A stretch of 55,881 nt of DNA, counting the filler, from Sphacelaria rigidula (lineage: Eukaryota), in assembly GCA_964200075.2 (NCBI GenBank). It is 5 parts of 5 records of this genome, joined end to end, with 100 filler letters (N's around TTAATTAATTAA, not from the genome) between each part and the next. Parts side by side here need not be neighbours in the genome. Positions count along the whole stretch, not along the records: positions 44,787 to 55,881 come from CAXNAA020005394.1; 4 more parts are not named here. One strand, given 5' to 3'. Numbering within the stretch: the stretch's first letter is position 1; every line of letters begins with the position of its first letter. Shown here piece after piece: positions 10,632 to 55,881 of this stretch. A program made the translations under genes and the position numbers. The notes below the pieces were generated by a model. That model was not told the DNA's origin. It saw nothing but the letters and a program-made list of their open reading frames with translations, and ran no database searches.

Positions 10632-11097
10632 CGGAATAGTGACACTACAGCTACACTGATAGGACAAAGAGAAGAACAAATCTTCTCCTGCGATGGAGAA
10701 GAGGAAACAAGACCCTGCAACGTTGCTTAATCAGGAGGTATATAGCACTCGGGATCATGAATATATATATATACCAACAGTACATTTTTTATAAAACACT
10801 TTTTGTGGTACTAATCTAAGGTACACTAGTTACGCGTACCCAATCAATGTGCCTAATATATATTGTCATGATCATGGGTGTAGTAGGTATTTGGGTTTCT
10901 TGTCCGCGTACTTGATAGGTAGGTAGGTACGTTTGTACGTACTTTCGTAGATCGTACATTAGTTGTAGCTGAACTGTTGCAACCAACACAGCACCACCCC
11001 CAGCCTTTTTTTTTTTTTTTTTCGTTTTTTTTTCTTTGGTTCGGGTTTTCCTTTCTTTGTTTTTTTCCCCCCCCCCCTCTTCTTTCCCGTCTTTACA

Positions 11098-11197
11098 NNN
11101 NNNNNNNNNNNNNNNNNNNNNNNNNNNNNNNNNNNNNNNNNTTAATTAATTAANNNNNNNNNNNNNNNNNNNNNNNNNNNNNNNNNNNNNNNNNNNN
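11098..11197. other. Artificial contig linker
   Basis: 44 N + TTAATTAATTAA (stops in all frames) + 44 N. Confidence 0.99.
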
Positions 11198-13149: not shown

Positions 13150-13398
13150 CAGCGTCCAGCAGCATGTTCACAACTTCCGCATGCCCCCCAGCGGAAGCTC
13201 CCATGAGGGCCGTGATACCGTCGCTGCGGCTGTTGCTGGCCGACGCGCCGTTCTTGAGTAGCTCCTTGACAACCTCTGCTCGGCCTTCCCCCGAAGCTAG
13301 CCAGAGGGCTGTCACGCCCGACTTCGCCTCTGCATCCACCTCCGCCCCCGCCTGATTTTATATCGTAGATTCAGAGAGTTGATGAAGACAAAAACAAT

Positions 13399-13457
<59 letters not shown>

Positions 13458-16400
13458 AACTGGAATTGGTGAAAAACAGAGCAACAAGGAAAAGGACGGC
13501 CTACTACTACAAAAAAAGTGAAATGAAAAAAACGTGAGCACGGTTATTTCTCGCGCCCTGTTCGCCTTTTCTCCTTCCGTCGCCCATTCTTCTTCATTTT
13601 CCCCTCTCTTTACTTTCCACTCATGAGCGAGCTCCTCCGATTAAGCTTGCCATGGACATCGTGTTTACTCTATGTACGCTCATCCAAAAACCACGGCTTA
13701 GATGCACAACGAATCAGTTTAAAATGAGTCCCCAGGTACGATAGGGGGAGGGGGGAGGGGGGGGAGGCGTACTCATGATTTTCCATGCTTCAGTCAAAAC
13801 CAATGAATTCGCGTCCCTACAAAACCGAGACGGAGCACGCCGGGTTTTCACGAGACCAGGCTCGCAATTTATCACCGAGCGCGGAGCGCCGTGATGCGTT
13901 CGGCGAATCGTATGAAGGGTGAGCTGCATCCTGCCAAGATTGTTCACCCGAAGCCTACTGATCATCTTGCATTTGGATGATCCAGACTACGACGAGTTGC
14001 CTCATTTCCTGGTATTGCCACCTTCGGAGACAGCCACGGCTTGAACACGGCCTCATGGGTGTCTCACCATTTGAACACTACTTAGTATAATTACCCCCCT
14101 TTGCGCGTAGTATAGGTTCTCGGCCGACGTCATGGTTACCGCAAAAAAAAGTCAGCAACCTATTACAGTTGCCTAGCTGAAGCAGTAAGTCACATGTTTT
14201 ACAGCGTCACTGCCAACCGATGCCAATCCTACAGGGGGTGGAGAGGGGGGGAAGGGGTGTTTTGGGGCATTGATTTTCACCAATTTCAACTTCAAATCGT
14301 TGTTGGAAGCAGCAAGGTTTGTTCGAACGCGCTTGCCACCAGTAAAAAAATATCATACCACGTGACACAGTTCTCACCCGAATACAAACGCACCGCCAGT
14401 AGTTAGGTCGTTCGACACACTTGTGAGCCCCTTTAGTTCGTAATCAAGAAACCTCCCCCCTTCCCCTCATCCTAGTTAAACGATTCACACACAAGATAGT
14501 TGCGAGAAAATGATCGCTACACTTGGGAGATAAATGATATCCACGAATGGCGCATCAAGTAGGGGCAAGATATTGTGAAGGTTCTTGTGTAGTGTATGGA
14601 AGAAACGTAATTAGCACCCAATTGTCGGAGGTGTCTCCACGATGAGTAGGAACGGTGCTCCGTCGAAAGAAATTAGACAATGGTCAAACGACCAAGGCAA
14701 GCAACGAATAGGTACTTCTCAACCCCCCCCCATCCCCAATCGTAGCGTCATTCTCGAATCGAAACACACGGATACCTTGAGAAGAGCCTTGACAACGTCA
14801 ACATGGCCCATGATAGACGCCTCCATCAGCCCAGAAATTTCGTCTTTGTCCTTCGCGTTCACGTCGGCTCCCTGCAGAAACACCGACCGCGGGTCAACGT
14901 TTGCGTGTTACCCACACAACTACGGATGAATCAACTACATTCGACGCATGGCGTTGAAAAAAATTACATTTACAAAGCTTCATACGGAGTCAGGATACTC
15001 CCAAGTTTTGTAAATAACAGACAAATGCACACCGCCAAAAGTTGACGCCTGGGAGGTGAGGTACAATCCGAATTCATCCACCAATGATTGATTCATGTTA
15101 ACGTCCACTCTCGCGTTCGGCTTTACTCAGAGTATATCGTTCCACCGGAGAAATACAGAGGAAAAACGCACCCTCAATCCCCAAGTGCAAATTATGCGTC
15201 CGTTCTCGTGTGATGAATCAAAATTGTGTTTTCGGCGTGGGGAGATGCCTGGAAGTGCAGGGTTCTTGTTTATAACACCTGACCAGACAGGGATATATAT
15301 GTATCGGGCATTGCAGGTCGAAGCTCGTGAGAGTAGGACTGCGCGCGCACTGCGCGAAGCTGACAGGGGGGTCTAGTGGGTCGAACCCCACGCTGCCTGA
15401 AGCAAAACTTTCCAAGGCTCTACGCACCTACCTCATATGATTGCCGTGAGACAGTATAGCTGAGCCTCTGCGTAATGGGAACACCAACCCGCTTGCGGGA
15501 AAAGTGTTCATTCAGGGTTCGTTCTTCCCTCAAGTGGACAGAAAAAATAACTACTGGGATAAGGTATGGCTTAGCGGGGTGATCGAGCCATGTTCCCAAC
15601 ATCCCATGTTGTTTCGAAAGACTATTTACCGAAACTATTTTGTTCATACTGTTGTACATACGCTACTCCTCGTCGATATCCCCTACAGAACACAACCTTG
15701 GTAATTTCAGGGCCGAAGCTCATGACAGCAGCGCGGCAGGTGCGCTGCGCCAAGTTGGTATGAGGTTCCAGTGGGTTCGACTCCCAGTGCCTCGAGTTGA
15801 GCGAAGCTTGCCACACGCTCGAGGCACCTTCCCCACATGACTGCCACCAGGCGGTCTAGTCGAGCGTCCGGATAATCAACCCTTTTGGAACCCACTGACA
15901 ATATTTGTTTTCGTGAATCGGCACCATCTCGACTTTAAAATGACTAAAAATGATGTCGTTCAAATAAAATAAAAATCGTCAATGGGTTCGGAAAGGGTTA
16001 AAACACGAATTCGGTAGCGGGTCAAGTTTGGGTGTGTTTTCCTTCTTTCTTCGGGGGAAAGAAAAAAAAGGCGGTGATCTTCACGTCACTGACTGCAGCT
16101 GCTGGCTTCTTGCCTTGCGAAACATGATTCACGGACAGCTCGGGGATGAGTATTTCCCCTCTCCACACACGAAACACACAACACTACTCCGATCTCACGC
16201 TTTTACCTTGTCCAGCAAGTGCTTCACGACTTCCAAATGTCCCTGCGATGCCGCTGCAACGAGGGCCGTCAGTTTGTCCCAGTCCTGACTATTCACGTCC
16301 AGACCGTCTTTGAGGTACGCCTTGACCGCATCCATGTCACCATCGGAGGCGGCCGTAATGAACCTGCGAGTCACGTACAACACGTTTCGTTTTCTCGTAC

Positions 16401-16924
16401 TCGACATACTTCTGTTGATAAAAAAAAGTGCGTGCTGGGCAGGAACAAAAGCAACATGACCTTCGTGATTCCTCATCCTCCCCCCTCCTATCCCCCAACA
16501 ATTTCAGCAGGATGCAGCTCACCCTCCAGGCGACTCACCGGACACATCACGGCGGCGCTTCACGCTTGGTAATCGAGTGCGAGCCTGGTCCGGCGAAAAC
16601 CCGGCGTGCTCCACCCCGACTTCGTGGGGATGCGAGGTCAATGCTCTCATGACTACGACATGCAAGGTCATGAGTACCCTCCACCCCCCCTGCGCGCCTT
16701 TTCCCTGACTTCATTTCCACTATGAACAAATGGGCACACCTGGCACCCGGGCTCATCATGAGGGAGATGTCCTCCTTCGACGCGAACTGAAGCGAAAGGC
16801 TGGCGTATCCCCCGTCGCACGGTCCCACCTTAGCGACCTCTCCATCCCTCTGTAGACAATTCAGGTTGCCCTCTCCTTCTGTCAGAATGTACCCGCTGTC
16901 CGTGTCGCCCAGGATGTTCCATGC
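13150..16924 (-). CDS. Ankyrin-repeat protein, internal exons only
   Basis: Exons on the minus strand: 16924-16740 (AWNILGDTDSGYILTEGEGNLNCLQRDGEVAKVGPCDGGYASLSLQFASKEDISLMMSPGAR), 16363-16207 (FITAASDGDMDAVKAYLKDGLDVNSQDWDKLTALVAAASQGHLEVVKHLLDK), 14871-14776 (GADVNAKDKDEISGLMEASIMGHVDVVKALLK), 13351-13150 (AGAEVDAEAKSGVTALWLASGEGRAEVVKELLKNGASASNSRSDGITALMGASAGGHAEVVNMLLDA). GT-AG sites with compatible phases; about 5 ANK repeats. Confidence 0.9.
13394..13458. repeat. (AAC)n microsatellite
   Basis: About 20 AAC units. Confidence 0.95.
15314..15878 (+). mobile_element. Two copies of a SINE-like repeat (15314-15510 and 15708-15878); third copy at ~55085-55310 (-)
   Basis: Colinear matches G(G/T)CGAAGCTC.TGA, CTGCGC.AAG.TG, CATATGA.TGCC and CGCTTG..AAGTGTT. 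The second copy has a B-box-like GTGGGTTCGACTCCC. Confidence 0.6.
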
Positions 16925-19900
16925 CTATGAGAAGCAAACACATGTGTTCCATCGAAAACAAAATGGGTAACAAGAAAAAAACAAGAAGGTGAAGTAACGG
17001 GCGGGAGAAGGGAGAAGGGAATAGGCGCTTAATCCGCCCATCGTGGGTGTGAGGGTGATTTTATTGACGTCACTCTATTTCTCATCTCTTAATTTTCCGT
17101 TTTCCCTTTCTCGACACAGGTTCTTTCAGAAGGTACTTCTATTCTCCATCTACCTTCGGTGTATCGGCCATGCACATGTGCGATAGCTCATTAAGTTATC
17201 ACGGTTCGGACGAATCGTTACCGGTTCGAATTACCAAATCCACAACTTTTCAGACCTGATTACTCAACAAAGAGGGGACACGTTTACTGGTGGCCACAAA
17301 GATATCCCCTCATTTTTTTGCACTATTCGACGTGCCTGGGCTGCGTGAACCTGGGTTGCAACGCTAAAAACAAAGCATTAGCATCGATTCATACGGTACG
17401 AACCAATCAGACTAAAATCGACTGATTTCCAGACGAGTCATGAATTCGCCCGACCCATGTAAGATACCGAGAAAAACTCATGATGGAGGACTCTAAGATC
17501 CATCATGCACAACACCAAACAGGTGACAGCAGGGTCAGAGAAGCCAACGCGCTACCGGGAGCAAATATGGGAAAAGGGGCAACATGAGATGAATCATGAT
17601 CCAGATCCGTACACTATTGGGTACTGATGTTCAGGTAACTCAGCTATTTGACGTGTACCATTATGTGGCCGGGACTGGATTTCGGTGAGATAGGTTCATG
17701 TGCGATAAAAAAACAAAACGAGCACGGTGAAGGGTATTCACAAAAAACCAAAATAAGCAATCATGTTAGCCATGTTACTACACTCGCGGTGATATCAATG
17801 GGCTTTCCTTACAGCTGGCCGTGCTTTTCGGAATTAGATAAATTGGGGTACTCTTTTCGGTGCGCCTTTCGGACGAGTATTCCACCTGCGCACCCGCGGC
17901 ACGCTCGCATGCGTGGTATAAATAAAAAACGTTTTTGCCAACAGAATATCAGTGGACGCACAACACGACCCGAACACAGCGCAGTGCAAAAAACAATCAC
18001 GAGAACATAAAAATGCTTCGTCTGGGGGTACCACACCTTTGCGCAGCATTTTTTGCAGGCGCCCAGCTCAAGAGCGGATTCTTCTCCTGCACAGCTGCTT
18101 CGATCCAAGCATGTGTCCTGCGCACGCACGCGAGGCGCACACAGCGCAGCACGGGCAACAAGAAGAAACCACAGGCATTTCGTCAAAAACGAAAAAAGAA
18201 ACTCACACACACACACACGACACATACTGGAAAATGACGAAAATATTACGTTGCCAAGAGGCGTATCAAGTAGAGCACGGAATCTACCGTACATTGCAAC
18301 GGTCGCAATAGTCGATGTATTCATGATCCTGCACGCCGTAGTCACACGGCCATCGGACTCGCATCCCTACAAAGCCGGGACGGGGCACGCCGGCTTGTCG
18401 CCGGACCATTCTCGGGCTGAGTGTGGGGTGGATGCTTGTGCCCGGAGTAACCGAGAAGCTTACGAAGCCAACCATGCGTGTATGAGACTTTCTGTGGGAA
18501 AATTTCAAGACAGGATGGAATCTCAAACAGGATGGAGAGGCGATTTCGATCATGCTGATTCGTCAACTTCATCCCGGAACGATTTCGCCGGCCAACAGTC
18601 AAGAAACGTACACAAGATTGCGGCGGGCGGCGTAGTTTTGGACGAAGGGGGGGGGGGGGTGAATCCCTGTTCCCGCATCAACCAAGAAGGTCAAGCGGGT
18701 TATTGACGGGGATTATCCCCTTTTGGAAACATCCTTAAAAAAAGGGTTTGCCCCAACAACGACCAGTTTGAGTGTTACCGCGAAAGCAGTTTGTACAGAT
18801 CGAAGCCCAGATCTGCACGCAGGTTCAGCGATGCGGCGATTTTGGAAGTGGTCTCTAGTCCAGCATCTGTACTAACGGACAAGACGCAGCAAGGCAACAC
18901 AACAATTTTACATCTAGCCCCAAAAAATCACGCACAGACCTCCAGCAATGACCCGCATTGAATCAGGCACTAGCTCCGGCCGATGTACACACATCTTTGT
19001 TAGACGGAAAAATCTTGTATTGGAGGAATCACGGTCGCGTGCGCGTCAAACTACAACCGAAAAATTGTCCTTCCCGGCCGTTTGTGTACGTATGCTATGC
19101 TCGCGTCCCACACAAATCATCGTTTTTCATTCAATTTTGAACATATTTGAGCAAGTTTAGCGGATAAGCAGCCACGGCTCAAGCTGTGTCTTTGGTTCGC
19201 GTGGGCACCAAATTCTTCAGGTTCAACTCTGTTGTGTTGGGTCGTATGGTGAGCCTTTGCATGTGCACCCGTTAACGGGATTCAAGGGTGTACACAAAGT
19301 CGCCCTTCCGAAGGGGATTGTGGGGCACGTTTTTTTTGGGGGGGGGTGCTATCGCGGCGATCAGGGGCCGTTTCTGAGAAGGTATTCTTCGGAAAAGGGA
19401 TCGTCTCTTTCGATAAGAACTTGCCTTGCGAAACCACTTATGCCCGTCTGAAACTTTCCGTAGAAAAAACTTCACCTAGGATGAAATCCCAAGACGAATG
19501 GAGTGGCCATTTGAATCGTGCCTGCCGATTGGTCCACTGGGTTGCGTCGTTCCCCTGCGGGATTTCACCAATATCCCAGATGCAGCTTGGCCGTGTTTGA
19601 TCGTTTGGGTGACGACTACTTGACCATAGAGGCACACGGGCAAAAGAGGCCTCTTCTGCTGTGTGTAGTCTATACAGCCCGCTTGCCCCCATCATGTCCT
19701 AAGATAGCTGTCCATCGTGTAGGGCGCTGTTGATCAACACGAACCAGGTGAAGGCGCAGGCTAGAGCAAATTATTGTGCCGTGAAAAAACGATGGCACGC
19801 ATATTTGCGAGGGTGTGTTGGGTGGGGTATTTCCGACATCTGGGTATTTCGAAAAATGGTATCACCACACGAGTACCCAAAACTCAAGTCGAGTATCACG

Positions 19901-22294: not shown

Positions 22295-22394
22295 NNNNNN
22301 NNNNNNNNNNNNNNNNNNNNNNNNNNNNNNNNNNNNNNTTAATTAATTAANNNNNNNNNNNNNNNNNNNNNNNNNNNNNNNNNNNNNNNNNNNN
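22295..22394. other. Artificial contig linker
   Basis: 44 N + TTAATTAATTAA + 44 N. Confidence 0.99.
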
Positions 22395-33490: not shown

Positions 33491-33590
33491 NNNNNNNNNN
33501 NNNNNNNNNNNNNNNNNNNNNNNNNNNNNNNNNNTTAATTAATTAANNNNNNNNNNNNNNNNNNNNNNNNNNNNNNNNNNNNNNNNNNNN
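33491..33590. other. Artificial contig linker
   Basis: 44 N + TTAATTAATTAA + 44 N. Confidence 0.99.
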
Positions 33591-44686: not shown

Positions 44687-44786
44687 NNNNNNNNNNNNNN
44701 NNNNNNNNNNNNNNNNNNNNNNNNNNNNNNTTAATTAATTAANNNNNNNNNNNNNNNNNNNNNNNNNNNNNNNNNNNNNNNNNNNN
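44687..44786. other. Artificial contig linker
   Basis: 44 N + TTAATTAATTAA + 44 N. Confidence 0.99.
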
Positions 44787-44989
44787 ATGATCATGAGTAC
44801 ACCCCCCCCCCCCTATAGTAGGATGACTCTGCGGCTAGATCAACCTATTATGCCTTTGAGCTGTCGACATTGAACACAGTACTCTTGGCCCTGTACCCAC
44901 CTTGCGCTGACCGGCTGTACACGTGGAGCGCCGTTGTGGGTCTTACGTTGACCCTTTTTCACTGCTTCTGCGTCGTGACTACATTATAG

Positions 44990-47900
44990 GGCAAGTATAC
45001 TGAGGCCGACCGTCTCTTCGAGCGATGTCAGGCGATGCTGGAGAAGGTTCTCGGCCCGGAGCACCTGACCTTGGCCGAAACGCTCGACGACCGTGCGGGT
45101 TTGTTTCAAGCTCAGGTTAGAGCCGATGAAACTTTGTCGTAGTAGTGTGTCGACCCTATGAACGACATTGTGTAGTGTTGATGTTGGTCGATCGTCCTGA
45201 GAACCAACGTTGACTGACAGAGTCAGTGCGGGAACGCCAGCCTGTTTTACCCCTGAGCCATCGGGATCGGGCGCAGGGCTCTTGACCCTGTAGACACAGC
45301 GCTCACCGGCTGCACATCAAGGTGGGGCGGTGTGTGTAAGCGTCTCGCAACCGTTGTGAATCCGACATTGATAGTTATGGGCTGCTTTCGCGTCATGAAC
45401 TGCATTCTATTGTTGACATACGGCATGCTGTGCTTTATGCAGGGCAAGTACGACGAGGCTGAGACACTCTACGAGCGGTGCCAGGTGATGAGAGAGAAGA
45501 TTCTCGGGCCGGAGCACCCGGTCTTCGCCTTCACGCTTCACAGCCGTGCGCAGTTGTCGAAAGCCCAGGTGAGAGCCGGTCGAACATTGTCGTAGTCGTT
45601 TGATGATGCGTGAAGAACGTTGTTTGGTGTTGGCATTGTTCACTGGTCCGGTGGGTAAGCTTAACTGACCAAGTGAGTGCGGCGAGGCCAGCCCGTTGTA
45701 TCTCTGAGCCGGCAAGACTGGGCAAAGTATAGACCCTGTACACATATCGCTCGCCGCCTGCACACGTGGGCGGGGCGGTAGCGTGAGCGTCTTGCAGCCG
45801 ATGTGGGTTCGACGTTCACCATTGCGGGATATTTCTGCGTCGCTTACTGCATTGCAGGGCAAGTACGCTGAAGCTGAGGAACGCTATGAGCGGTGCCAGG
45901 CGATCAGAGAGAATATTCTTGGTCCGGAACACCCAAGCGTAGCGGCAACGCTTGGGAGCCGTGCGGTGCTGCTTCAGGCTCAGGTGAGAGCCGATGGAAC
46001 TCCCTCGTGATCGTGTATCGTTGCGTGAAGGACACTGTGTGGTGTTGATGTTGTTTCCTGGTCCTGTGGGCAACGTTGACCGCAAGTGTCAGTGTGGCGG
46101 TGCCTGCCCGTTGTACCTCTGAGCGGTAGAGATCTGGCATGGTATCCTCGGCCCCGAACGTGTGGCCCTCTCCGGCTGTACAACTAGGCGGGGCGGTGAC
46201 GCGAGCTTCTGGCCGACGTTGTAGGTTCAGTATTGACTTTTACAGGCTGTCTCTACGTTTTGTACTCATTGCAGGGCAAGTATACCGAGGCCGAGGTACT
46301 CTACGAGCGGTGCCAGGCGGTGCAGGAGAAGGTTCTTGGCCCAGTGAATCCTAATTTGGCCACGACGCTTCACAACCGTGCGGGGTTGTTGCGAGACCAG
46401 GTGGGAGTAAATGTATATTTCTCGTTGTCGTGTGTCGACGTGTGAAACATTGTATGGTGCTGACATTCTCGCTCAACCTGTAAGCCAAAGTTGATTAACA
46501 GAGTGACTGCAGCAGGGCGAACCTGTTATAGCTCTAAGCCATCGAGATCGAGCACAGTGTCGTTGACTGTACACATAGCCGTTGGCGAGGCGGTAGCGCA
46601 AGCGTCTCGCTAAGGCTCCAGGTCCGATGCTGGCCGTCACAAGGTGCTGCTACGTCGTGTACTACATTGCAGGGCAAGTACGCCGAGGCTGAGACACTCT
46701 ACGAGCAGTGCCAGGCGATCGAGGAGAAGGTTCTCGGTCCGGAGCACCCACATTTGGCCACAACGCTGAACAACCTTGCGGGGTTGTTGCGAGACCAGGT
46801 GGGAGTCAATGTACCTTTCTCGTTGTCGTGTGCCGAGGTGTGGACGGCATTGTGTGGTGCTGATATTCTTGCTTCACCTGTGGGTTAAAGTTGACTAACA
46901 TAGTGACTGCAGCAGGGCGAACCTGTTATAGCTCTGAGCCATCGAGATCGAGCACAGTTATGGGGGGGGTGAATGGGGCCCGATTTTGGGCACTATATAT
47001 CGGTAAAATGGACCGACCACAATCCATTGCAGAAAAAATGACGCGTAATCGAGCCAATCGTATCAATCACAAATACACACATCATCTCCAAATAACGACC
47101 TCGCTCATATGAGATGTAGTCTAACTTCAGTACATATTTACAAGCCTGTGAGGGGTCGGTGTCGCGGAAATGTAGTTGCTCCGGCGACTGCACTGATAGA
47201 TTGTTGTGTGCTTGTTTCGTTTAGCTGTTGCACGCGGGACTTACACACCCACTACATTCCACCCAACATTCACTGTCCTTCTCAACATCAGCAGACAAGA
47301 ACACGAAAAGTGGCAGCAGTTGCGGGCGTCACCCCCAAAACCAACCCTACCTAACCCTTTACTCACATACCCCACAAACGAAGCAGCACAGAATATTCAG
47401 ACAATCAGCACATGTGTCGAGTATCGTGGAACCGGCGAGAATGATGTAGACGACGTTGACGAAGATAAAGCGATTCACGCTGTGCGTCTGGGCTGCTCAT
47501 TGCATACCCCGCACCTTCCTGTGATGGCGGGTTCGGAGAGCAATTACTCCATGGGCCCCATGGGCTCAGGATCGTGGCACGAGGGGAAGGAATCACTTTT
47601 GTATTCTCCACCCCTGAAAGCAAACCGTCAACGGCAAACTCCACCTCTGCGACACAAGACACAAGACGTTTAGAGCTATCAGTGTTGAACCGTCGTGTTG
47701 CCTTTTGTGTCATGCCGACCACCACGGCAGCGCAAAGGAGCGCTGCGTAATCAAGGTCCCCACATATCCACTTCACATTACATCGGCACAGAGCAAGTGC
47801 TGGAATGTGCATGTTGGCGCAAATACCCTTGCTCATTTTTGCTTTGTAGTATATAACCCTGAAACCAAGCATTCGATCGAAACTGCAACTTGCCAACCAC

Positions 47901-50900
47901 GATGTTTACATACTTCCTCTGTCTTATAAGTCTGTGCCGAATTGATTTTACGGCCACTTAACCGTGTCCGATGTCTTGGGCGCTAATTTTTTCGAAATCT
48001 TGAGCGATTTTTGGGTTGAAATCCATCTCTTTTTTTTTTCAGCTTGCGCTTAAACCATGCGGCCGAAGGGCCGGAAAACATTGAGTCGGCCCAAAAACGG
48101 CCATATTTTGTCCCTTTCCAGGGGGGCGGTGGGTGGGGCACTTAGCCTAAACCTCCCCTAAAAACACAAGAATTAGCCCAACCCTTGAGCTAACCCCCCC
48201 TATACTCAACCATCCATGACGTGTCCCCTATAATAAAACCAGTATAATAGTTACCCCACACTAAAACGAAGACACTTGGGGATCCCACACTAAAACCAAG
48301 ACACTTGCGGGGCAAAAACAACAACAGTAGGGCCCGAACCCAGCCCCCCTCTACTCAACGATCCATGTCGGGTCCCCCCATACTCGAACCAGTATAATAG
48401 TGAACCCACACTAAGACTAAGATACCTGGGGTTCCACATTAAAACCAATATACTTGGGGGGCCCACACTAAAACCAAGACACTTGTGGGCAAAAAAACAA
48501 CATAGTGCCCGAACCCACCCCCCCTCTACTCAACGATCCATGTCGCGTCCCCCTATACTCAAACCAGTATGATAGTGACCATACACTAAAACTAAGACAC
48601 TTGTGTTTCCACATTAAAACCAAGACACTTGCGGGCAAAAAAAGTGTCTGTTGGTGTTGGGGGAAAAAAAGGGTCAGGGTTAAAATATTCTCAAAAAGGG
48701 CCAAAATGGGCATATTTTGACCTAATTTTTGTGTGTAACACGGTCTTCGATTATTTTTTTTTTAGCCGACTTTGTATGTGTTTTGCCTTTCTAACGCACC
48801 GAACCAAAGGTTAAACGTCAACGTGTAAGTATCCAAACGAATTCACGCGCAATTCGGCACGGACTTATGAGACAGAGGAAGTATTGTTGTTAGTGTACAA
48901 AGGCGGTTGTGGCAACAAACATCGTGGCTGCTGCTATTAGTCAGTGAAGTGTGGTACACCGACGATGGTCAAAACCGCTTTTCACACGTGGGTTTCGGCG
49001 CTTGATCCGTCCGACGTACGCTCAGGCGGCTGTCACGTGTGACCTTGCCCACTTCAATTCGAGAGGTGGCGGGTATTTGCTGTTGTAACGCGAAGTCGCT
49101 TTGCACAGCCACACAGAGGAAACCAGCACGTGGCTTGTTATCGATGCACACAGGCAGTAGTGACAGCACATTTCCTCCAATTTGTTGGGAAAAGGAATCG
49201 ACCCTTGTACACAAGCGCATACAAGAAATAAGTACTACATGGCAGGACGTAAGATACATACACATCTTCCCCCATGTCGAACTGTTCACATATTGTTAAT
49301 AGTATTCACAGTCAGTTACGGGAAACATCATCGCTGTCTCTCGACTGTGAAAGGACCAAAGAACCGAGAAAAAACATTAGGCGCACCGACTTGGCTTATA
49401 CGCCCCGACACTCTGACGTGAAACGGACGCGTTGAGCCTTTCGGTGGCCACCTTGAGTCTTTTTTCAGCCTTCTCCACGCGTTGAGGCGCCGCCTGGAGC
49501 TTGCGTGCGGCTGTCACGGCACAGGATAAGTCTTGACCGGTATTTTCCTTGTACGTCGTGCATGCTGCGCAGGAGGTCGCTTCAATCCTGAGTTTCGAAA
49601 CACCGAGCTTTTCAGAATTCACCATTTTTCACCTCGATAAACGCTGCTGTTCCTGAAGCCGTAAGTGCCGATTTTTCAACGCAGATGTCTCGGCAACGAA
49701 GCAGGGGGTTGAACTGTGGTTTGATGCGTGCGCTTCCTACACACCAGAACTTTTCAGTGCCGCGGCGGATTCCCGTGACGCGCCGCGGGGCCCGCAGCAC
49801 TTGGCAAACCGCCAAAATGTAATGAAAACGCGTTCTGTTCGACGTTCGGGGGCGTTTCGGATCCGCTGTGGCGAATTGAGCAAGGCTGCCGCGGTGCTGA
49901 ATAGATCCAGTGTGTGCGCTGGGGGCTGCCAGGTTCCACAGACCAATTTGCTTCCCGTCTCGAGATTTGTGCGATGGAAAAATTACAGCTGTCGCATACT
50001 TAACGTGGGTAATGGTGGAGCGTGTGTTATGTTCGGCAGAGGTTCGGCAGAGGTTCGGCACAGGTCCGACCAGTCAATAACGTCTTTCATACGTCTTCAA
50101 TATCCCTCCACGTTCATATTTGTTTTTGTTGACAACAGAGTTCTGGTCGGTAAGGCCTTCATTCACCCCCATAACAGTGTCCTTGATCCTGTAAACGTAG
50201 CTGTTAGCGGGGCGGTCGCGCAAGCGTCTCGCAATATCCCTCCGCGTTCATATTTGTTTTTGTTGACAACGGAGTTTTGGTCGGTAAGGCCTTCATTCAC
50301 CCCCATAACAGTGTCCTTGACCCTGTAAACATAGCCGTTGGCGGGGCGGTAGCGCAAGCGTCTCGCTAAGGCTCTAGGTCCGACGTTGGCCGTCACAAGG
50401 TGCTGCTATGTCGTGTACTACATTGCAGGGCAAGTACGCCGAGGCTAAGACACTCTACAAGCGGTGCCAGGCGATCGAGGAAAAGGCTTTCAGCTCGGAG
50501 AACCCACATTTGGCCACAACGCTCAACAACCTTGCGGGTTTGTTGGAAGCTGAGGTAAAAGTTACGAAACTTCCTCGTAGTCGTGTGTCGACGTGTTGAA
50601 CGATGTTTGGTGGTGGAGATGTTGTTCGCTGGTCTTGTGGGCCAGCGTTGACTGACAGATTGTGTAGGGTAATGTCCCGCCGCCATACCTGTGAGCTGTC
50701 GAGATCCGGTATAGCACCCTGGCCATGTACACACAGCGCTCGCCGACTGCACACGAGGGTGAGGTGGCGGTCTGAACGTCTTTTCACCGTTCAAGGTCCG
50801 CCGTTCTAGGTCCACTTTTAACTGTTCTAGGCGGCTCCTACGCCACGTACTACATGACAGGGCAAGTACGCCGAGGCCAAGCCAGTCTACGAGCGGTGCC

Positions 50901-53900
50901 AGGTGATGCAAGAGAAGCTTCTCGGCCCGGCGCACCCTAGCCTGGCTGCGACGATCCACAATCGTGCGGGATTGTTGAAAGCTCAGGTGCGAGCCGATGA
51001 AGCTTGTTCGTTGTTGGGTGTCCGTGTGGGCGATATTGTGTGTTTTCGATGTTGTTCCCTAGTGCTGTGGGCCAGCGTTGACTGAGACGGCGGTCTCGGT
51101 TAGGCCATCCCGTTGTACCTCTGGGTCGTGGAGATCAGGCATTTTACTCTTGATCCTGTACATACTTGCTGCACACCTGGGCGGTATGGTGGCGTGAGCA
51201 TCTCTCCGCCGTTGAAGCTCTGGCCTTTACCGATCTGGGCTACTCCCGCGATCTTCACTACATCGCAGGGCAAGTACGCCGAGGCTGAGCCACTTTTAGA
51301 GCGGTGCCAGGCGATGCAGGAGAAGGTATTCGGCTCTGAGCACCCAAACGTGGCGGCAGCGCTGGGAAGCCGTGCGGAGCTGTTGCAAGCTCGGGTGAGA
51401 GCCAATGGAACTTTGTCGTAGCCGTGTTCACGCGTGAACGACATCGTGTGGTGTCGATGTTGTTATTTGGTCCTGTTGGACAACGTTTACCGAGAGAGTG
51501 CAGCAATGCTAACCTGTGGTACATCTGAGCCGTCGGGGTTTTGCATAGTACCTTCGACCCTGTATATATACGGTAGCGCTCGTCGGCTGCACATCAAGGC
51601 GGGGTGGTGGTGCGAGCGTCGCGCCACCGTTGTGGGTCCGCCGCTGACTGTTATAGGTTGCTCCTGCGTCATGGACTACATTGCAGGGCGAGTTCCCGGG
51701 GGCGGAGAAAATCTTCAAGCGGTGCCAGGTGATGCTGGAGAAGGTTCTCGGCCTGGAGCACCCAAGCTTGGCCACAACGCTTAACAACCTTGCGGGTTTG
51801 TTGCAAGCTCAGGTATGAACCGATGGAACTTCCTAGTTACGTATCGACGTGTGAGCGACAACATGCGTTTTTGAAGTTGTTCGCTGGTGCTGTGAGCCAA
51901 CGTTGACATAGAGGGCGCGTGCGGCGAGCCCAACTCATGGTACCTCTGAGCCGTAAAGACGAGGCAATCGGCGTCGTGTCTACGTTGCAGGGCAGGTACA
52001 TCGAGGCTGAGGTTCTCTACGAACGGTGCCAGGCGATCCAGCAGAAGGTTCTCGGCCCGAAGCACCCAAGTCTGGCCACAACGCTTAGCAACCGTGCGAG
52101 TTTGTTGAAGTGTCAGGTAAAGGCTAACGGAACTTCCTGCCAGTTGTGTGATTATGTGTAAACGTTTTTGTGTCGTGTTGGTGGTGTCCGCTGGTCTCGT
52201 GCGCCAACGTTGACTGAGGGTGAGTGTGGCGAAGCCAACTCGTTGCACCCCTGAGCCGACGTGATGCGCCATAGTTCCCTTGGCCCTGTACACACAGCGA
52301 TTCTCGGCTGCACATCTGGGTGGCGCGGTGGCGCGAACGTCTTGGTGCCGTTGTCGGTTCGACGTTGACTGCTACGGGCTGGATCTGCATCATGTACTAC
52401 ATTCCAGGGCAAGTACGCTGAAGCCGAGCCACTTTTCGAGCAGTGCCAGGAGATGAAGGAGATGATTCTCGGCATGGAGCACCCAAGCTTGGCCGCCACA
52501 CTCCGCAACCGTGCGGTGTTGTTGCAAGCTCAGGTGAGAGCGGATGGAGATTTGTTGGTGTCGTGTGTCGGCATATAAATGGCTTCGTGTGGTGTTGACG
52601 TTGTTCGCTGCTTCTGTGTGGTCGACGTTGACTGAGGGGGTGAGTGCGGCGAGGCCAACCTATTGCATATCTCAGCCGTCGATAGTGGGGATCGTATCAA
52701 TAGCCCTTCCTGTACACATCGCTCGCCGGCTGCACACCTGAGCGGGGTATTGCCCGTACGCCTCGCCGCCGTACTAGATCCGACGTCGACTGTTTCACGC
52801 TGCGTCTGCGTCCTTAACGACATTGCAGGGCAAGTACGCCGAAGCGGAGTCACTCTGCGAGCGAAGCCAGGCGATGCAGCAGAAGATTCTCGGCCCCGAG
52901 CATCCTGACTTGGCTGCAACCCTGTGTAGTCGGGCGAGGTTGTTGGAAGCTCAGGTGAGAGCCGTTGGAACCCCTCATCATCGTATGTCGACATGTCAAC
53001 GACACTGTGTAGCATCGGTGTAGTTCGCCGGTGCTGTGGGCCAACGTTGATTGACAAGGTGAGTGCCGCTAAGCTGAATAGAGGCACCTATGAGCGATCG
53101 AGATCTGGCATATTGCCCTTGACCCTGTACACGTAGGCCTCTCCCGCTGCACACCTAGGCTGGGCGGTGGCACGAGCGTCTCGCCGCCGTTGCGGGTTCG
53201 AGGTTGACTGTTATCGGTTGTTTGTGTCTCGTGCTACGGTGCAGGGCAAGTATGCCGACGCTGAGTCACTGTATGAGCGGTGCCAGGCGATCGAGGAAAA
53301 GGTTCTCGGCCCGGAGCACCCTAGCCTGGCTATAACGATCCACAATCGTGCGGGTTTGTTGCTAGCTCAGGTGCGAGCCGATGAAACTTGTTCGTTGTTG
53401 GGTGTCCGTGTGGACGACATTGTGTGTTTTCGATGTTGTTCGCTAGTGCTGTGGGCCAAAGTTGAACGAGAGGGCAGTCTCGGTTAGGCCATCCCGTTGT
53501 ACCTCTGGGTCGTGGAGGTCATGCATTTTTCTCTTGGCCCTATACATGATTGCTGCACACCTGGGCGGTATGGTGGCGCGAGCATCTCTCCGCCGTCGCA
53601 TATCCGACGTTGATGGTTACAAGATGCTCCTGCGTCGTGCACTGTATTACAGGGCAAGTACAACGAGGCTGAGCCACTTTTGGAGCGGTGCCAGGCGATG
53701 CAGGAGAGGGTTCTCGGCCTGGTGAACCCTGATTTAGCCGCAACGCTTCACAGCCGTGCGGGACTGTTGCAAGCTCAGGTGAGAGCCAACGGAACTTTGT
53801 CGTAGTCGTCTGTCAACTTGTACACGACATCGTGTGGTGGAGATGTTGTTATTTGGTCCTGTGAGCCAACGGTGACTCGGGAAATAAGTGCGGTGAAGTC

Positions 53901-55615
53901 AACTTGTTGTACATCTGAGCTGTCGAGTTCAGGCATAGTATTCTCGGCCCTGTCGGCACATTGCTCACCGGCTGCACATATGGACTAGCAATGGTGGAAG
54001 CTTCTGGTCCCCGATGTGGGTCCAATGTTGACCGTTACATGCTGCTCCTGAACCGTGTACTACATTTCAGGGCAAATACGCCGAGGCTGAGCCGCTATAT
54101 GAACGGTGCCAGGTGATCAAGGAGAAACTTCTTGGCCCCGACCACTCTGACTTGGCCGCCACGATCAACAACCGTGCGGGGTTATTGGAAGCTCAGGCGA
54201 GAGTCGGTAAAACGTTCTCGTGTTCGTGTGAAGGACATTGTGTGGTGTTGATGTTTGCTGATCCTGTGGGCCAGCGTTGTCTGAGAGGGTAAGTGCTGCC
54301 AGACGAATCCGTTGTACCCCTGAGCAGTCGAGATTGGGCATAGTATCCGTGGTCCTGTACACACATCGCTCACCGGCGGCACACCTGAACGGAGCGATGG
54401 CGCAAATGTCTCGCCGCCGTCATAAGTCAGACGTTGATTGTCACGCGATGCTTCTGCGTCGTTTCTACATTGCAGGGCAAGTACACCCAGGCTGAGCCAC
54501 TCTACAAGCGCTGCCAAGCGATACTGGAGAAGGCTCTCGGCCCGGAGCACCCGAACTTGGCCAGAACGCTTCAAAACCGTGCGTGGTTGTTGCAAGCTCA
54601 GGTGAGAGCCGATGTACCTTTCTCGTAGTCGTGTGTCGACGTGTTGACTGAGAATGTGATTACCCCGAGACCAATCCGCTGTACGTTTGAGTGGTCGAGA
54701 TCGGGAAGAGTACTCTTGGCGCTGTACACACATCGCTCGCCGGCTGTGCACCAGGGCAGGGTGGTGGCGGGAGCGTCTCGTCGCTATTGTGTCCGGCGTT
54801 TACTGTTCTAGGCTTGTTGTGCGTCGTACACTACATTGCAGGGCAAGTATGCTGAGGCTGAGCCACTTTACGAGCAGTGTCAAGCGATCGAGGAAAACGT
54901 TTTCGGTCCGGAGCACCCGAGCCTGGCCATGACGCTTCGCAACCGTGCGGGGTTGTTTCAAGCTCAGGTGAGAGCCGATGGAACTTTGTCGTTGTTGTGT
55001 GTTGGTTTGAACGACATTGTGGTGTTGATGTTTGCTGGTGGTGTTGACTGAGAGGGTGGAAGCGTGGAAGTCAACCCCTTTGTTTGTCCTTGACGGATGT
55101 AACAAACCCAACCTAACACTTACCTCCCAAGCGAGTTCGTGTCCCGATTAGCCAAATGCTCGGCTAGACTGCCTCGCGGCAGTCATATGGGGAAGGCGCC
55201 CCGGGCGTTCGCAAGCTTTGCTGAAGGCAGTGTGGGGGATGCTCCCACTAAACCACCTATCAACTTGGCGCTGTGCACGCGCCGCCATGCTCTCAGGAGC
55301 TTCGGCCCTAGAGAAAGCCATCCCTTCGTACCCCTTAGCCGTCGAGATCGGGCGTAGTACCCTTCGCCTTCGCACGCATCGGAGGCCGGCTGCACACAAA
55401 GGCGAGGCGGTAACCCGGGCATCTCTCCGCCGTTGTAGATCCGACGCTGACTGCTACAGGCTACCCCTGCGTCGTATACTGCACTGCAGGGCAAGTACGC
55501 CGAGGCCGAGCCACTTTTCGAGCGGTGCCAGGCGATGCAGGAGAAGGTTCTCGGCCCGGTAAACCGTGATTTGGCCGTCACGCTCCACAACCGTGCGAGG
55601 TTGTTGCAAGCTCAG
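44990..55615 (+). CDS. Array of 18 one-repeat-per-exon 42-aa TPR exons (kinesin light chain/TPR_10-12 type; probable NB-ARC-TPR-like receptor), open at both ends
   Basis: 126-nt phase-0 exons start at 44990, 45443, 45858, 46275, 46673, 50429, 50861, 51269, 51687, 51991, 52408, 52829, 53245, 53653, 54071, 54476, 54842 and 55490. Consensus GKYAEAEPLYERCQAxxEKVLGPEHPxLAxTLxNRAxLLQAQ. All have YAG acceptors; 17 have GT donors and 1 has a GC donor. No stops or frameshifts. Confidence 0.95.
46959..50173. mobile_element. ~3.2-kb TIR DNA transposon (decayed or non-autonomous) in TPR intron 5
   Basis: Termini TATGGGGGGGGTGAATG / CATTCACCCCCATA, flanked by ACAGT at 46954-46958 and 50174-50178. The paralogous intron 4 shows the empty site GAGCACAGTGTC. 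No intact transposase recognised. Confidence 0.85.
47913..48881. mobile_element. 969-bp Tc1/mariner-type (Stowaway-like) MITE nested in the TIR element
   Basis: TA + CTTCCTCTGTCTTATAAGTCTGTGCCGAATTG ... CAATTCGGCACGGACTTATGAGACAGAGGAAG + TA. Three internal tandem units at ~48195-48644. Confidence 0.85.
50099..50366. repeat. 134-bp tandem duplication spanning the transposon right junction
   Basis: Units 50099-50232 and 50233-50366 each contain the TIR, ACAGT and ~54 nt of host intron. Confidence 0.92.
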
Positions 55616-55881
55616 GTGAGAGATGTACCTTTATCGTGGTCTTGTGCCGACGCGTGAACGATATCGTGTGGTGTTGATGGTCCTGGATGATCCTGTGGGA
55701 CAACATTGACTGAGGGTGAGTGCGGAGAAGCCAACCTGTTATATCGGGCATACCCGTACTTGTGCGAGTCATCGCACACCCCCTGAACCGAACGTCAAAG
55801 CTCGATTACTCTATGACGAAGAGGGTGACAATGCCAAACGACGCGTTTTTGGACATCTATCGACGAGATATTTCCAGCGTC

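Follow-up and report, generated by a model that had tools for sequence, protein, structure and literature searches.

A tandem array of TPR exons in the brown alga Sphacelaria rigidula raises the question of whether the differences among its repeat units lie on the ligand-binding face of the encoded domain, and whether they reflect diversifying selection on binding specificity, as a preliminary description had proposed. We analysed the window, a stretch of 55,881 nucleotides (filler included) in which five parts of assembly GCA_964200075.2 are joined end to end; the array lies in the part taken from CAXNAA020005394.1.

Exon organization of the TPR array

The window contains 18 intact TPR units of 42 codons, all on the plus strand, the same number as given in the preliminary description. 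Exactly these units were recovered by a regular-expression (regex) scan and by a profile HMM of the unit, run against six frames of the whole window. They score 71-85 bits with the HMM, and the two remaining rows of its output are both negative-scoring. The same six-frame search of the whole window found no degenerate or inactivated TPR exon copies on either strand. All 18 units (44990..55615) are 126 nt long with phase 0/0 borders; each has AG directly upstream, and the downstream dinucleotide is GT in 17 cases and GC in one. Every exon has a Pfam match to TPR_12 (E ≤ 4.5e-5). As isolated 42-residue pieces, 10 of the 18 reach the TPR_12 gathering score (30.1 bits) and 13 reach the cut-off of TPR_12 or TPR_10. 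The array-bearing piece (44787-55881) is cut at both ends, so 18 units is a minimum, and because it starts inside an intron the array probably continues upstream of 44787. The features are listed below; the TPR exons were identified by regex, HMM and Pfam.

44687-44786: filler between joined parts, N44-TTAATTAATTAA-N44
44787..44989, plus strand: 3' part of the upstream intron, ending in AG; 56-63% identity to other introns (MAFFT)
44990..45115, plus strand: TPR exon 1
45443..45568, plus strand: TPR exon 2
45858..45983, plus strand: TPR exon 3
46275..46400, plus strand: TPR exon 4
46673..46798, plus strand: TPR exon 5
46799..50428, plus strand: repeat-filled intron of 3630 nt between TPR exons 5 and 6
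50429..50554, plus strand: TPR exon 6
50861..50986, plus strand: TPR exon 7
51269..51394, plus strand: TPR exon 8
51687..51812, plus strand: TPR exon 9, with the most divergent N-terminus (GEFPGAE)
51991..52116, plus strand: TPR exon 10, directly after the shortest intron (178 nt)
52408..52533, plus strand: TPR exon 11
52829..52954, plus strand: TPR exon 12
53245..53370, plus strand: TPR exon 13
53653..53778, plus strand: TPR exon 14
54071..54196, plus strand: TPR exon 15, followed by the sole GC-AG intron
54476..54601, plus strand: TPR exon 16
54842..54967, plus strand: TPR exon 17
55490..55615, plus strand: TPR exon 18, after an intron of 522 nt
55616..55881, plus strand: start of a further intron (GT donor), 50-59% identity to other introns, reaching the window end

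Protein identity between units ranges from 50 to 81%, and mean DNA identity is 76%. The residues at the exon junctions are near-invariant (Q42 in 16, G1 in 18, K2 in 16 and Y3 in 17 of the 18 units). The introns are 60-73% identical to one another, compared with ~50% for control stretches, and the intron identity of ~0.66 equals that of four-fold degenerate sites (0.66). Exon and intron were duplicated together, in units of ~415 bp. In the long intron at 46799..50428, inverted repeats of 35 nt lie at 47910-47944 and 48850-48884, a 175-bp unit is repeated in tandem at 48256-48635, and a segment of 134 bp is tandemly duplicated at 50098-50365; none of the five long ORFs of this intron has a Pfam match. 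Word depth in run X1 is 2,900-19,700 in this intron, against ~70-150 over most of the exon array.

Seven of the 17 introns are removed exactly at the predicted borders in public contigs from runs X5, X7 and X8, which were taken as RNA by guess, the run type not being on record. The joints seen in the public contigs connect exons 1-2, 2-3, 3-4, 6-7, 13-14, 15-16 and 16-17; the 1-2 joint is present in contigs of all three runs, the 15-16 joint in X5 and X7, and the 6-7 joint in contig pieces. Contigs of the DNA-like run X1 read from exon into intron.

These joints argue against reading the array as a pseudogene in decay or as a collection of inactive exon copies, an explanation that is strongly disfavoured and can hardly be correct. 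It could appeal to the 3.6-kb repeat-filled insertion that splits the array, and to the inactivated TPR exons described from introns at some Ectocarpus loci of the NB-ARC-TPR family in the excerpted text of Zambounis et al. (2012, PMC3341825). Unlike those loci, the S. rigidula array has no inactivated exons in its introns; each of the 18 units has an open frame and usable splice sites, and omega is 0.36 overall (M0, 18 units) and 0.24 at scaffold positions.

Helix assignment and unit variability

For the closest relative, P0003, six units (residues 573-824) were modelled with AlphaFold; the model has a pLDDT of 96.1 and 12 helices, with helices at unit residues 3-20 and 26-41 and a loop at 21-25. 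Because of these helix positions, each exon is predicted to begin with helix B, pass through a loop and end with the following helix A, the exon border falling in the turn that links helix A to helix B; the model thus agrees with the preliminary description. Such a border lies inside the TPR motif, unlike that of the Ectocarpus exons as presented in the excerpts of Zambounis et al. (2012, PMC3341825).

In Foldseek searches, the P0003 model matched the TPR domains of KLC1 and KLC2 at TM 0.7-0.8 and 4y6c at TM 0.72-0.84; the KLC1 match has a phmmer E of 1e-44 and is ungapped over 202 residues. The TPR consensus comprises seven positions, 4, 7, 8, 11, 20, 24 and 27. In the array these equal the conserved L32, R35, A36, L39, A6, Y10 and C13, with identical spacing, and the frequent Asn at TPR position 6 corresponds to N34, with Asn in 12 of the 18 units. 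When KLC1 contact residues from the JIP1 and TorsinA complexes, as given in the available text of Pernigo et al. (2018, PMC6214655), are carried over through the ungapped alignment, K340 falls at position 30, N259, N301 and N343 at 33, V305 and L347 at 37, and R266 at 40. Both the consensus spacing and the peptide contacts bear out the earlier mapping of positions 30, 33, 37 and 40 to helix-A positions 2, 5, 9 and 12. Placement on the groove or the convex face was based on the KLC1 contact alignment, published TPR positions and helical periodicity.

The array shares with kinesin light chain (PDB 6FUZ, 6FV0, 3ZFW, 3NF1) the 42-residue repeat, the fold and the Asn at unit position 34, and the KLC peptide-contact positions coincide with five variable unit positions. 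Position 33, which corresponds to the leading Asn of the 'NN' pair in KLC, is the most variable unit position in the array. According to the same excerpts (Pernigo et al., 2018, PMC6214655), KLC carries an N-terminal coiled coil and six TPRs, of which TPR5 and TPR6 are separated by a non-TPR helix, whereas the array has at least 18 uniform units and a coding sequence without interruption. NB-ARC-linked, 42-residue KLC-type repeats are also found in fungal NLRs (Podospora, PDB 4Y6C, 4Y6W). In Podospora, positively selected and polymorphic sites were placed on the concave side with a KLC2 template (3EDT), and the fungal repeats have >85% internal identity and vary in number (excerpts of Dyrka et al., 2014, PMC4986451), compared with a mean protein identity of 63% between the S. 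rigidula units; an organization of one exon per repeat is not described in those excerpts.

The scaffold is nearly fixed, as previously stated: G1, A6, Q14, A29, A36 and L38 occur in all 18 units, and Y3, C13 and G22 in 17. The residue sets reported earlier for positions 30 (8 residues), 33 (8), 37 (7), 27 (6) and 40 (5) are exact. Entropy is highest at position 33 (2.64), followed by 30 (2.43), 8 (2.35), 27 (2.26), 17 (2.15), 37 (2.10), 40 (1.95) and 4 (1.79). Positions 8, 17 and 4, which had not been flagged, are thus comparably variable, and at least seven positions of the repeat contribute to the variation.

In TPRs generally, variability peaks at canonical positions 2, 5, 9, 12, 13, 33 and 34, which lie along the concave face (available text of Magliery and Regan, 2005, PMC1261162). 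The concave set of these authors (33, 34, 2, 5, 6, 9, 12 and 13) translates into unit positions 27, 28, 30, 33, 34, 37, 40 and 41. Mean entropy is 1.76 in this groove set, compared with 1.09 at nine outer-face helix-B positions and 0.69 at the other 25 positions (Mann-Whitney, p = 0.03 and p = 0.0012, respectively); the variation does concentrate on the groove face. Five of the eight most variable positions fall among the nine KLC1 contact positions (hypergeometric p = 0.006), and five (30, 33, 37, 40 and 27) belong to the generally hypervariable set, although two members of that set, canonical 13 and 34 (unit positions 41 and 28), lack this variability in the array. The entropy profile correlates with that of 766 units taken from other TPR_12 proteins, most of them bacterial (rho 0.62, p = 1e-5), and is largely the generic TPR_12 pattern. 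The general TPR statistic is drawn family-wide from unrelated proteins, whereas the array consists of paralogous repeats of one gene and is described by codon-level rates.

Selection on the codons

For position sets fixed beforehand, omega is 1.03 in the groove (p = 0.92 against 1), 0.42 on the convex face and 0.24 in the rest. Relative to the outer helix-B face, the nonsynonymous rate is 2.8-fold in the groove set (LRT 23.0, p = 1.6e-6). Our in-house likelihood code agrees with IQ-TREE (GY+F3X4), at lnL -1380.64 and -1380.43, respectively. The scaffold is under purifying selection, and the groove-facing positions evolve at an approximately neutral rate.

Site models that include a class with omega > 1 fit better. 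M2a was preferred over M1a with p = 0.045 on one tree (LRT 6.2) and p = 0.002 with separate trees for the exon halves (LRT 12.2); for M8 against M8a the values were p = 0.058 (LRT 3.6) and p = 0.001 (LRT 10.8). M2a assigns 2-3% of sites to omega 3.7-4.4, with site posteriors that are naive empirical Bayes values from 18 sequences of 42 codons and a tree length of ~8 substitutions per codon. Per-site tests at p < 0.05 single out positions 8, 40 and 20 only. Position 8 gives the strongest signal (p = 0.001 and 0.0006 in two analyses) and alone survives Bonferroni correction over 42 sites; position 40 follows (p = 0.013 and 0.004), and position 30 is borderline (omega ~1.7-2.9, p = 0.37 and 0.095). 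The sites that outpace synonymous change are 30 and 40, facing the groove, and 8 and 20, in helix B. The proposed diversifying selection at the groove codons therefore stands for position 40 and, at the borderline, for position 30, but not for 33 and 27, which are about neutral, or for 37, which leans to constraint (p = 0.007 and 0.063). Positions 30, 33, 37 and 40 pooled (omega 1.31-1.44) do not depart significantly from 1 (p = 0.43 and 0.30).

Position 8 lies in helix B, outside the KLC1 contacts, and a helical wheel would place it on the outer face. That the fastest position is on helix B could hint at a second interface on this face. The public runs list 13 exonic variants, 8 synonymous and 5 nonsynonymous, and all five of the latter are at variable unit positions (30, 37, 17, 8 and 30).

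Relaxed constraint alone, with variable TPR surface positions drifting neutrally and no adaptive diversification of binding, would account for the groove and pooled omega values and for the behaviour of positions 33, 27 and 37. It would also account for the same positions being the most variable in the 766 TPR_12 units and in TPRs generally, and the groove omega of 1.03 fits plain relaxation as well as it fits a mixture of constraint and diversification. We consider this explanation rather unlikely, while giving it some weight. Sites 8 and 40 are individually significant, and the gain in fit from the class with omega > 1 is seen in both model pairs. Exposure alone does not yield an omega of 1, because the exposed convex positions are constrained at 0.42. 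Selection models were likewise favoured for 124 Ectocarpus TPR exons, where M8 placed 4% of sites at omega 2.8; the selected sites there were 31 (M2, M8) and 15, 19, 22 and 31 (M3), in the numbering of that study (excerpts of Zambounis et al., 2012, PMC3341825).

The exon trees are poorly resolved and conflicting. For each exon half, the topology obtained from the other half is rejected (AU p = 0.0003 and 0.003), as is that of the flanking introns (AU p = 0.003 and 0.005), and well-supported clades differ between exon, exon halves and flanks. Gene conversion or recombination could thus have produced omega > 1 as an artefact, with mosaics forced on one tree causing false multiple hits, and the LRT indeed climbs to 14.9 on a mismatched flank tree. 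Yet separate exon-half trees strengthen the signal instead of removing it, and sites 8, 30 and 40 recur on every tree tried. In exon 8, which shows the clearest tree conflict, third positions match either partner at 13 of 21, so that conversion is not favoured. An artefact of this kind is improbable.

Gene family and a possible combinatorial reading

The best protein matches of the array are brown-algal, with 70-73% identity per unit for the top three (P0003, P0002 and P0001). Six brown-algal matches carry NB-ARC (PF00931): P0001, P0002, P0003, P0008, P0092 and P0096. P0002 also has TIR families, and residues 122-478 of P0003 match Apaf-1 (E 3.7e-21). A named Ectocarpus siliculosus NB-ARC-TPR protein is among the matches. 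A tblastn search with four NB-ARC-bearing N-terminal regions found no NB-ARC in the window, matching TPR exons only; the window piece has 203 nt upstream of exon 1, and the N-terminal part of the gene lies outside. The region is probably the middle of the TPR sensor domain of an NLR-like candidate immune-receptor gene of the brown-algal NB-ARC-TPR family.

A rival reading is that the gene encodes no NOD-type receptor but a long TPR scaffold with another role, whether made of TPRs alone or joined to a different domain. No N-terminal domain is present within the window, only TPR families are listed for seven of the 13 brown-algal matches, and bacterial TPR proteins, many of which bear the name CHAT-domain protein, make up most of the full set of matches. 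We nevertheless think a scaffold unlikely: the three closest proteins all carry NB-ARC, one of them with TIR families in addition, and some of the TPR-only brown-algal entries are labelled 'partial'. Repetitive 126-nt TPR exons moreover characterize a single clade of Ectocarpus NB-ARC genes in the excerpts of Zambounis et al. (2012, PMC3341825).

The NB-ARC-TPR family was first described in Ectocarpus, and one repeat per exon, exon shuffling and diversifying selection were published for it in 2012; Table 1 of that paper gives the ligand-binding mapping of the TPR genes as 'not determined' (excerpts of Zambounis et al., 2012, PMC3341825). As there, the S. rigidula array has 126-nt (42-residue) exons with one repeat each, on the coding strand only, in a brown-algal host, and its site models point to positive selection on a small minority of sites. 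The NB-ARC part is known in Ectocarpus, whereas the S. rigidula array is seen as TPR exons alone. Groove-lining variation is already known for the family and for TPRs generally.

We hypothesize that the A helices line up into one continuous concave groove, which would bind an extended ligand. N34 may be kept as a ladder of asparagines that bind the ligand backbone, as in KLC1, while positions 30, 33, 37, 40, 17 and 27 would make the pocket of each repeat distinct. If an exon were duplicated, lost or skipped, the groove would change but frame and fold would stay intact. Ligand binding by the TPR domain could then be signalled to an N-terminal NB-ARC ATPase encoded outside the window.

VLRs are LRRs assembled somatically from cassettes, and TALE repeats recognize one base each, read through two residues. 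The array resembles both in being a solenoid of repeats with candidate specificity at a few positions per repeat; the likeness is only an analogy. For the NB-ARC-TPR family, the comparison with VLRs is already in print, and alternative splicing or somatic recombination of the exons has been proposed (excerpts of Zambounis et al., 2012, PMC3341825).

Since the exons are symmetric (phase 0) and the Q|GKY junction is near-invariant, any exon could follow any other. Contigs of three runs contain joints that are not colinear with the window, one between an exon 6-like end and the start of exon 18 and one between the end of exon 18 and an exon 17-like start; these have short sides and may stem from paralogues, exons beyond the window or assembly. 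It is highly unlikely that the array is read combinatorially, with exons skipped, reordered or exchanged through alternative splicing or somatic recombination. If it were, one locus would yield many groove variants, and the array would be a brown-algal counterpart of an anticipatory receptor repertoire.

Anatomy of the exon array and its relatives

The window consists of five pieces of about 11.1 kb separated by linkers of the form N44-TTAATTAATTAA-N44, so that adjacent pieces are not each other's genomic context. The TPR array occupies the fifth piece (44787-55881). A regular-expression scan finds 18 units of 126 nt on the plus strand of this piece, and a profile hidden Markov model of the units, run over the whole window in six frames, recovers the identical 18 units (71-85 bits), no unit on the minus strand, and beyond the 18 just two rows, both with negative scores. 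Both ends of each unit fall between codons; AG precedes every unit, GT follows 17 of them, and GC follows one, at 54197. The introns measure 178-522 nt, apart from a 3630-nt one that separates units 5 and 6. All units match Pfam TPR_12 (E ≤ 4.5e-5), and 13 of the 18, scored as isolated 42-residue pieces, reach the curated score for TPR_12 or TPR_10. The copies have diverged too far for Tandem Repeats Finder to report the 415-bp period.

Features of the window
11098-11197, 22295-22394, 33491-33590 and 44687-44786: linkers; letters read only at 44687-44786, layout of N runs alike in the other three
47910-47944 and 48850-48884: 35-nt inverted repeats with 94% complementarity, on either side of 905 nt that include a 175-bp tandem repeat
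50098-50365: tandem duplication of 134 bp with 94% identity, shortly upstream of exon 6
50861-51394: units 7-8
51269-51394: exon 8
53245-53778: units 13-14
54197-54475, plus strand: GC-AG intron, the sole one in the array, missing from contigs of X5 and X7

Homology extends to the introns, which share 60-73% identity between units, compared with about 50% for controls. Their divergence equals that of four-fold degenerate sites (0.66 each), which indicates that exon-plus-intron units were tandemly duplicated long ago. A younger segmental duplication of two units gave the pairs 7-8 and 13-14: flank-tree support is 99 and 100, and the introns that follow units 7 and 13 are 84% identical. These pairings are absent from the exon-only tree. 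The 5' half of exon 8 is 90% identical to exon 14, the 3' half only 70%, and the 3' half groups with exon 3 (bootstrap 95). Third-position matches are equal for both partners (13/21 each), and exon 8 contains either a fast-diverged helix-A half or a short conversion tract. Across the 18 exons, four-fold degenerate third positions are fully conserved in codons 1, 15 and 36 and 87% conserved in codons 35 and 41 (mean 66%), which suggests constraint at the nucleotide level, for example from splicing signals, RNA structure or small-RNA target sites.

The entire 3.6-kb intron has very high word depth in X1, a DNA-like public run, and is therefore high-copy sequence. The segment 47910-48884 within it looks like a non-autonomous terminal-inverted-repeat element. 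None of the five long open reading frames of this intron has a Pfam match.

Exon borders were compared with contigs from three public runs of a single study, X5, X7 and X8, which we guessed to be RNA and used for joints, not for expression level. In these contigs, 7 of the 17 introns are missing, with the exons joined precisely where predicted; X1 contigs continue from exon into intron. Thirteen exonic variants, among those listed for the public runs, comprise eight synonymous and five nonsynonymous changes, the latter at unit positions 30, 37, 17, 8 and 30; they may be alleles or close paralogues. Non-colinear joints were also seen in X5, X7 and X8 (50551 to 55487, 55559 to 44988 and 55613 to 54841, with matching sides of 25-41 nt), linking an exon 6-like end to the start of exon 18, and the end of exon 18 to an exon 17-like start. 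Such joints could stem from paralogues, from exons past the end of the window, or from assembly across repeats.

The best protein matches are brown-algal and include a named Ectocarpus siliculosus NB-ARC-TPR protein; no protein in the database search is identical to the units of the window. The three closest proteins (P0001, P0002 and P0003) show 70-73% best per-unit identity and all carry NB-ARC, and residues 122-478 of P0003 match Apaf-1. A tblastn search with four NB-ARC-bearing N-termini found no NB-ARC sequence in the window, and we infer the domain architecture of its gene from these relatives. P0002, a close relative from Scytosiphon promiscuus, lists TIR families (PF13676, PF01582) alongside NB-ARC and TPR, and would be a case of TIR-NB-ARC-TPR architecture in a brown alga. 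When a degenerate 20-mer taken from the start of the exon was used to scan metagenomes, 125 stretches were returned. Among the multi-match loci checked in the 80 stretches listed, none has the algal-type spacing of about 415 nt; the spacings are multiples of 126 nt, thus intronless arrays, and we rejected these stretches as algal-type loci.

Variable residues and the TPR groove

The preliminary description had reported a nearly fixed scaffold in the units, with variation at positions 27, 30, 33, 37 and 40, and both reports are exact. G1, A6, Q14, A29, A36 and L38 are present in 18 of 18 units, and Y3, C13 and G22 in 17. Position 30 takes A, T, E, F, I, R, M and V; position 33 takes H, N, G, R, D, S, C and Q; position 37 takes G, V, R, Q, E, S and W; position 27 takes S, D, N, H, T and V; and position 40 takes Q, K, E, R and L. 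Three comparably variable positions had been omitted: 8 (entropy 2.35; P, T, V, S, R, E and K in the 18 units), 17 (2.15) and 4 (1.79).

A variable groove is a generic feature of TPRs. Between the array and 140 units from 13 brown-algal proteins, entropy profiles correlate with rho 0.53; the correlation is stronger with 766 units from the other, mostly bacterial, matches (rho 0.62, p 1e-5), and positions 37, 41, 40, 17, 30, 27 and 31 are the most variable in these comparison sets. Specific to this locus are an unusually free position 33 (entropy 2.64, compared with 1.48 and 1.89 in the two sets) and unusually fixed positions 31 and 41 (0.31 and 0.80, compared with about 3).

As a stand-in for the spliced protein of the window, we folded six consecutive units of its closest relative (P0003 residues 573-824; pLDDT 96.1). 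In each unit of the model, residues 3-20 and 26-41 are helical and residues 21-25 form a loop. An exon therefore begins in the turn between helices A and B and runs through helix B and the loop to the end of the next helix A, in line with the preliminary description. The border thus splits the motif, whereas the 2012 paper on Ectocarpus words the exon, in the portion drawn on here, as 'a TPR plus a linker' (Zambounis et al. 2012, PMC3341825). The model resembles the TPR domains of KLC1 and KLC2 (TM 0.7-0.8) and also matches the 42-residue repeats of Podospora.

Placement of the variable residues was judged in two ways, by published TPR positions and by mapping of KLC1 contacts, both based on sequence rather than coordinates. 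The canonical TPR consensus positions 4, 7, 8, 11, 20, 24 and 27 correspond, with identical spacing, to L32, R35, A36, L39, A6, Y10 and C13, and the frequent Asn of canonical position 6 falls on N34. From this register, positions 30/33/37/40 are helix-A positions 2/5/9/12, in agreement with the earlier assignment, and 27/28 are canonical 33/34. According to the part of Magliery and Regan (2005, PMC1261162) used here, the most variable TPR positions, on the concave face, are 2, 5, 9, 12, 13, 33 and 34, and the HOP ligand is contacted by positions 2, 5, 6, 9, 12 and 13.

Alignment of the P0003 stretch with KLC1 (6FUZ) needs no gaps. Contact residues were taken from the available account of the KLC1-JIP1 and KLC1-TorsinA complexes (PMC6214655), and the alignment letters match every named one, which verifies the register.

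KLC1 contacts named in the source and the unit positions they align to
Position 3: Y313
Position 17: R327
Position 30: K340
Position 33: N259, N301, N343
Position 34: N302, N344, N386
Position 37: V305, L347
Position 38: L348
Position 40: R266
Position 41: K309, N351

Of the eight most variable positions, five (30, 33, 37, 40 and 17) are among these nine (hypergeometric p 0.006). Positions 4, 8, 20 and 27, the last being canonical 33, are not among the named contacts. Helical periodicity would place 4 and 8 on the outer face of helix B, opposite its buried stripe A6/L9/Y10/C13. Compared with KLC1, the backbone-binding Asn at 34 is retained here, whereas its neighbour at 33 is free to vary.

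Codon-level selection

The 18 exons are short sequences with a tree length of about 8 substitutions per codon, and their overall omega is 0.36. Our GY94/F3x4 likelihood code was checked against IQ-TREE (lnL -1380.64 and -1380.43). Site models were run on exon and flank trees, and FEL additionally on an exon-plus-flank tree; mixture models kept branch lengths proportional to M0. Site posteriors are naive rather than BEB, and p values of likelihood-ratio tests (LRT) were taken without parametric bootstrap.

On the exon maximum-likelihood tree, M2a is preferred over M1a (LRT 6.2, p 0.045), with omega 3.7 for 3% of sites and site 8 alone in that class. M8 is preferred over M7 (p 0.0004), and the comparison with M8a gives p 0.058, with a positive class of omega 1.47 for 21% of sites; naive posteriors exceed 0.5 at sites 4, 8, 17, 20, 27, 30, 33, 37 and 40. 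The exon halves each reject the tree of the other half and the intron-flank tree (AU p 0.0003-0.005), and each half was therefore given a separate tree. With two trees, the support rises for M2a over M1a (LRT 12.2, p 0.002; sites 8 and 30 in the positive class) and for M8 over M8a (LRT 10.8, p 0.001; omega 2.07 for 17% of sites, namely 4, 8, 20, 27, 30, 33 and 40).

Tests at single unit positions (p for the single-tree and the two-tree model)
Position 8: positive; 0.001 and 0.0006
Position 40: positive; 0.013 and 0.004
Position 20: positive; 0.046 and 0.024
Position 30: omega 1.7-2.9; 0.37 and 0.095
Position 33: about neutral; not significant in either model
Position 27: about neutral; not significant in either model
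Position 37: toward constraint; 0.007 and 0.063

Only site 8 withstands correction over 42 sites. Diversifying selection had been inferred for the groove face, and dN/dS above 1 is indeed found at position 40, but the pooled positions 30/33/37/40 give omega 1.31-1.44 (p 0.43, 0.30), and taken singly, position 30 is not significant, 33 and 27 are near neutrality and 37 tends toward constraint. The clearest picture among the codon results comes from position sets fixed beforehand. Omega is 1.03 for the groove set (27, 28, 30, 33, 34, 37, 40 and 41), 0.42 for an outer set of nine helix-B positions and 0.24 for the remaining 25, and the nonsynonymous rate of the groove is 2.8 times that of the outer set (LRT 23.0, p 1.6e-6). 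At the codon level, support for adaptive diversification is marginal, and the signal peaks outside the groove, at helix-B position 8.

Relation to known NB-ARC-TPR genes

Brown algae are not known to have classical plant- or animal-type immune receptors, and the main candidates there are the NB-ARC-TPR and ROCO families. In Ectocarpus, the portion of Zambounis et al. (2012, PMC3341825) drawn on here describes 13 NB-ARC genes with repetitive 126-nt TPR exons and exon shuffling, and likens the system to vertebrate adaptive systems. Site models favour selection on these exons (M8, 4% of sites at omega 2.8); the selected sites 15, 19, 22 and 31 follow the numbering of that paper, whose register may differ from that of the unit positions used here. 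The same portion lists ligand-binding mapping of these genes as undetermined (PMC3341825). For a Podospora NB-ARC-TPR protein, selected and polymorphic sites are placed on the concave side in the part of Dyrka et al. (2014, PMC4986451) considered, and concave-side variability is described as general to TPRs in that of Magliery and Regan (2005, PMC1261162). A literature search, judged by titles and the beginnings of abstracts, found no structural mapping of brown-algal TPR exon variation.

Given this earlier work on Ectocarpus, Podospora and TPRs in general, as far as the sources were drawn on, the array is an already known kind of gene, correctly read: the observation of the preliminary description is confirmed, and its interpretation is partly supported. 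The points added are small, and consist of the exon frame, the mapping of KLC1 contacts in a brown alga, the retention of N34 with position 33 freed, and the signal at position 8. The locus is a clean further brown-algal example, with exon joints in contigs from runs guessed to be RNA. The analysis also supplies what the 2012 paper left undetermined, the position of the variable residues, which lie largely at KLC1 peptide-contact positions and offer concrete residues for mutation or swapping in binding assays.
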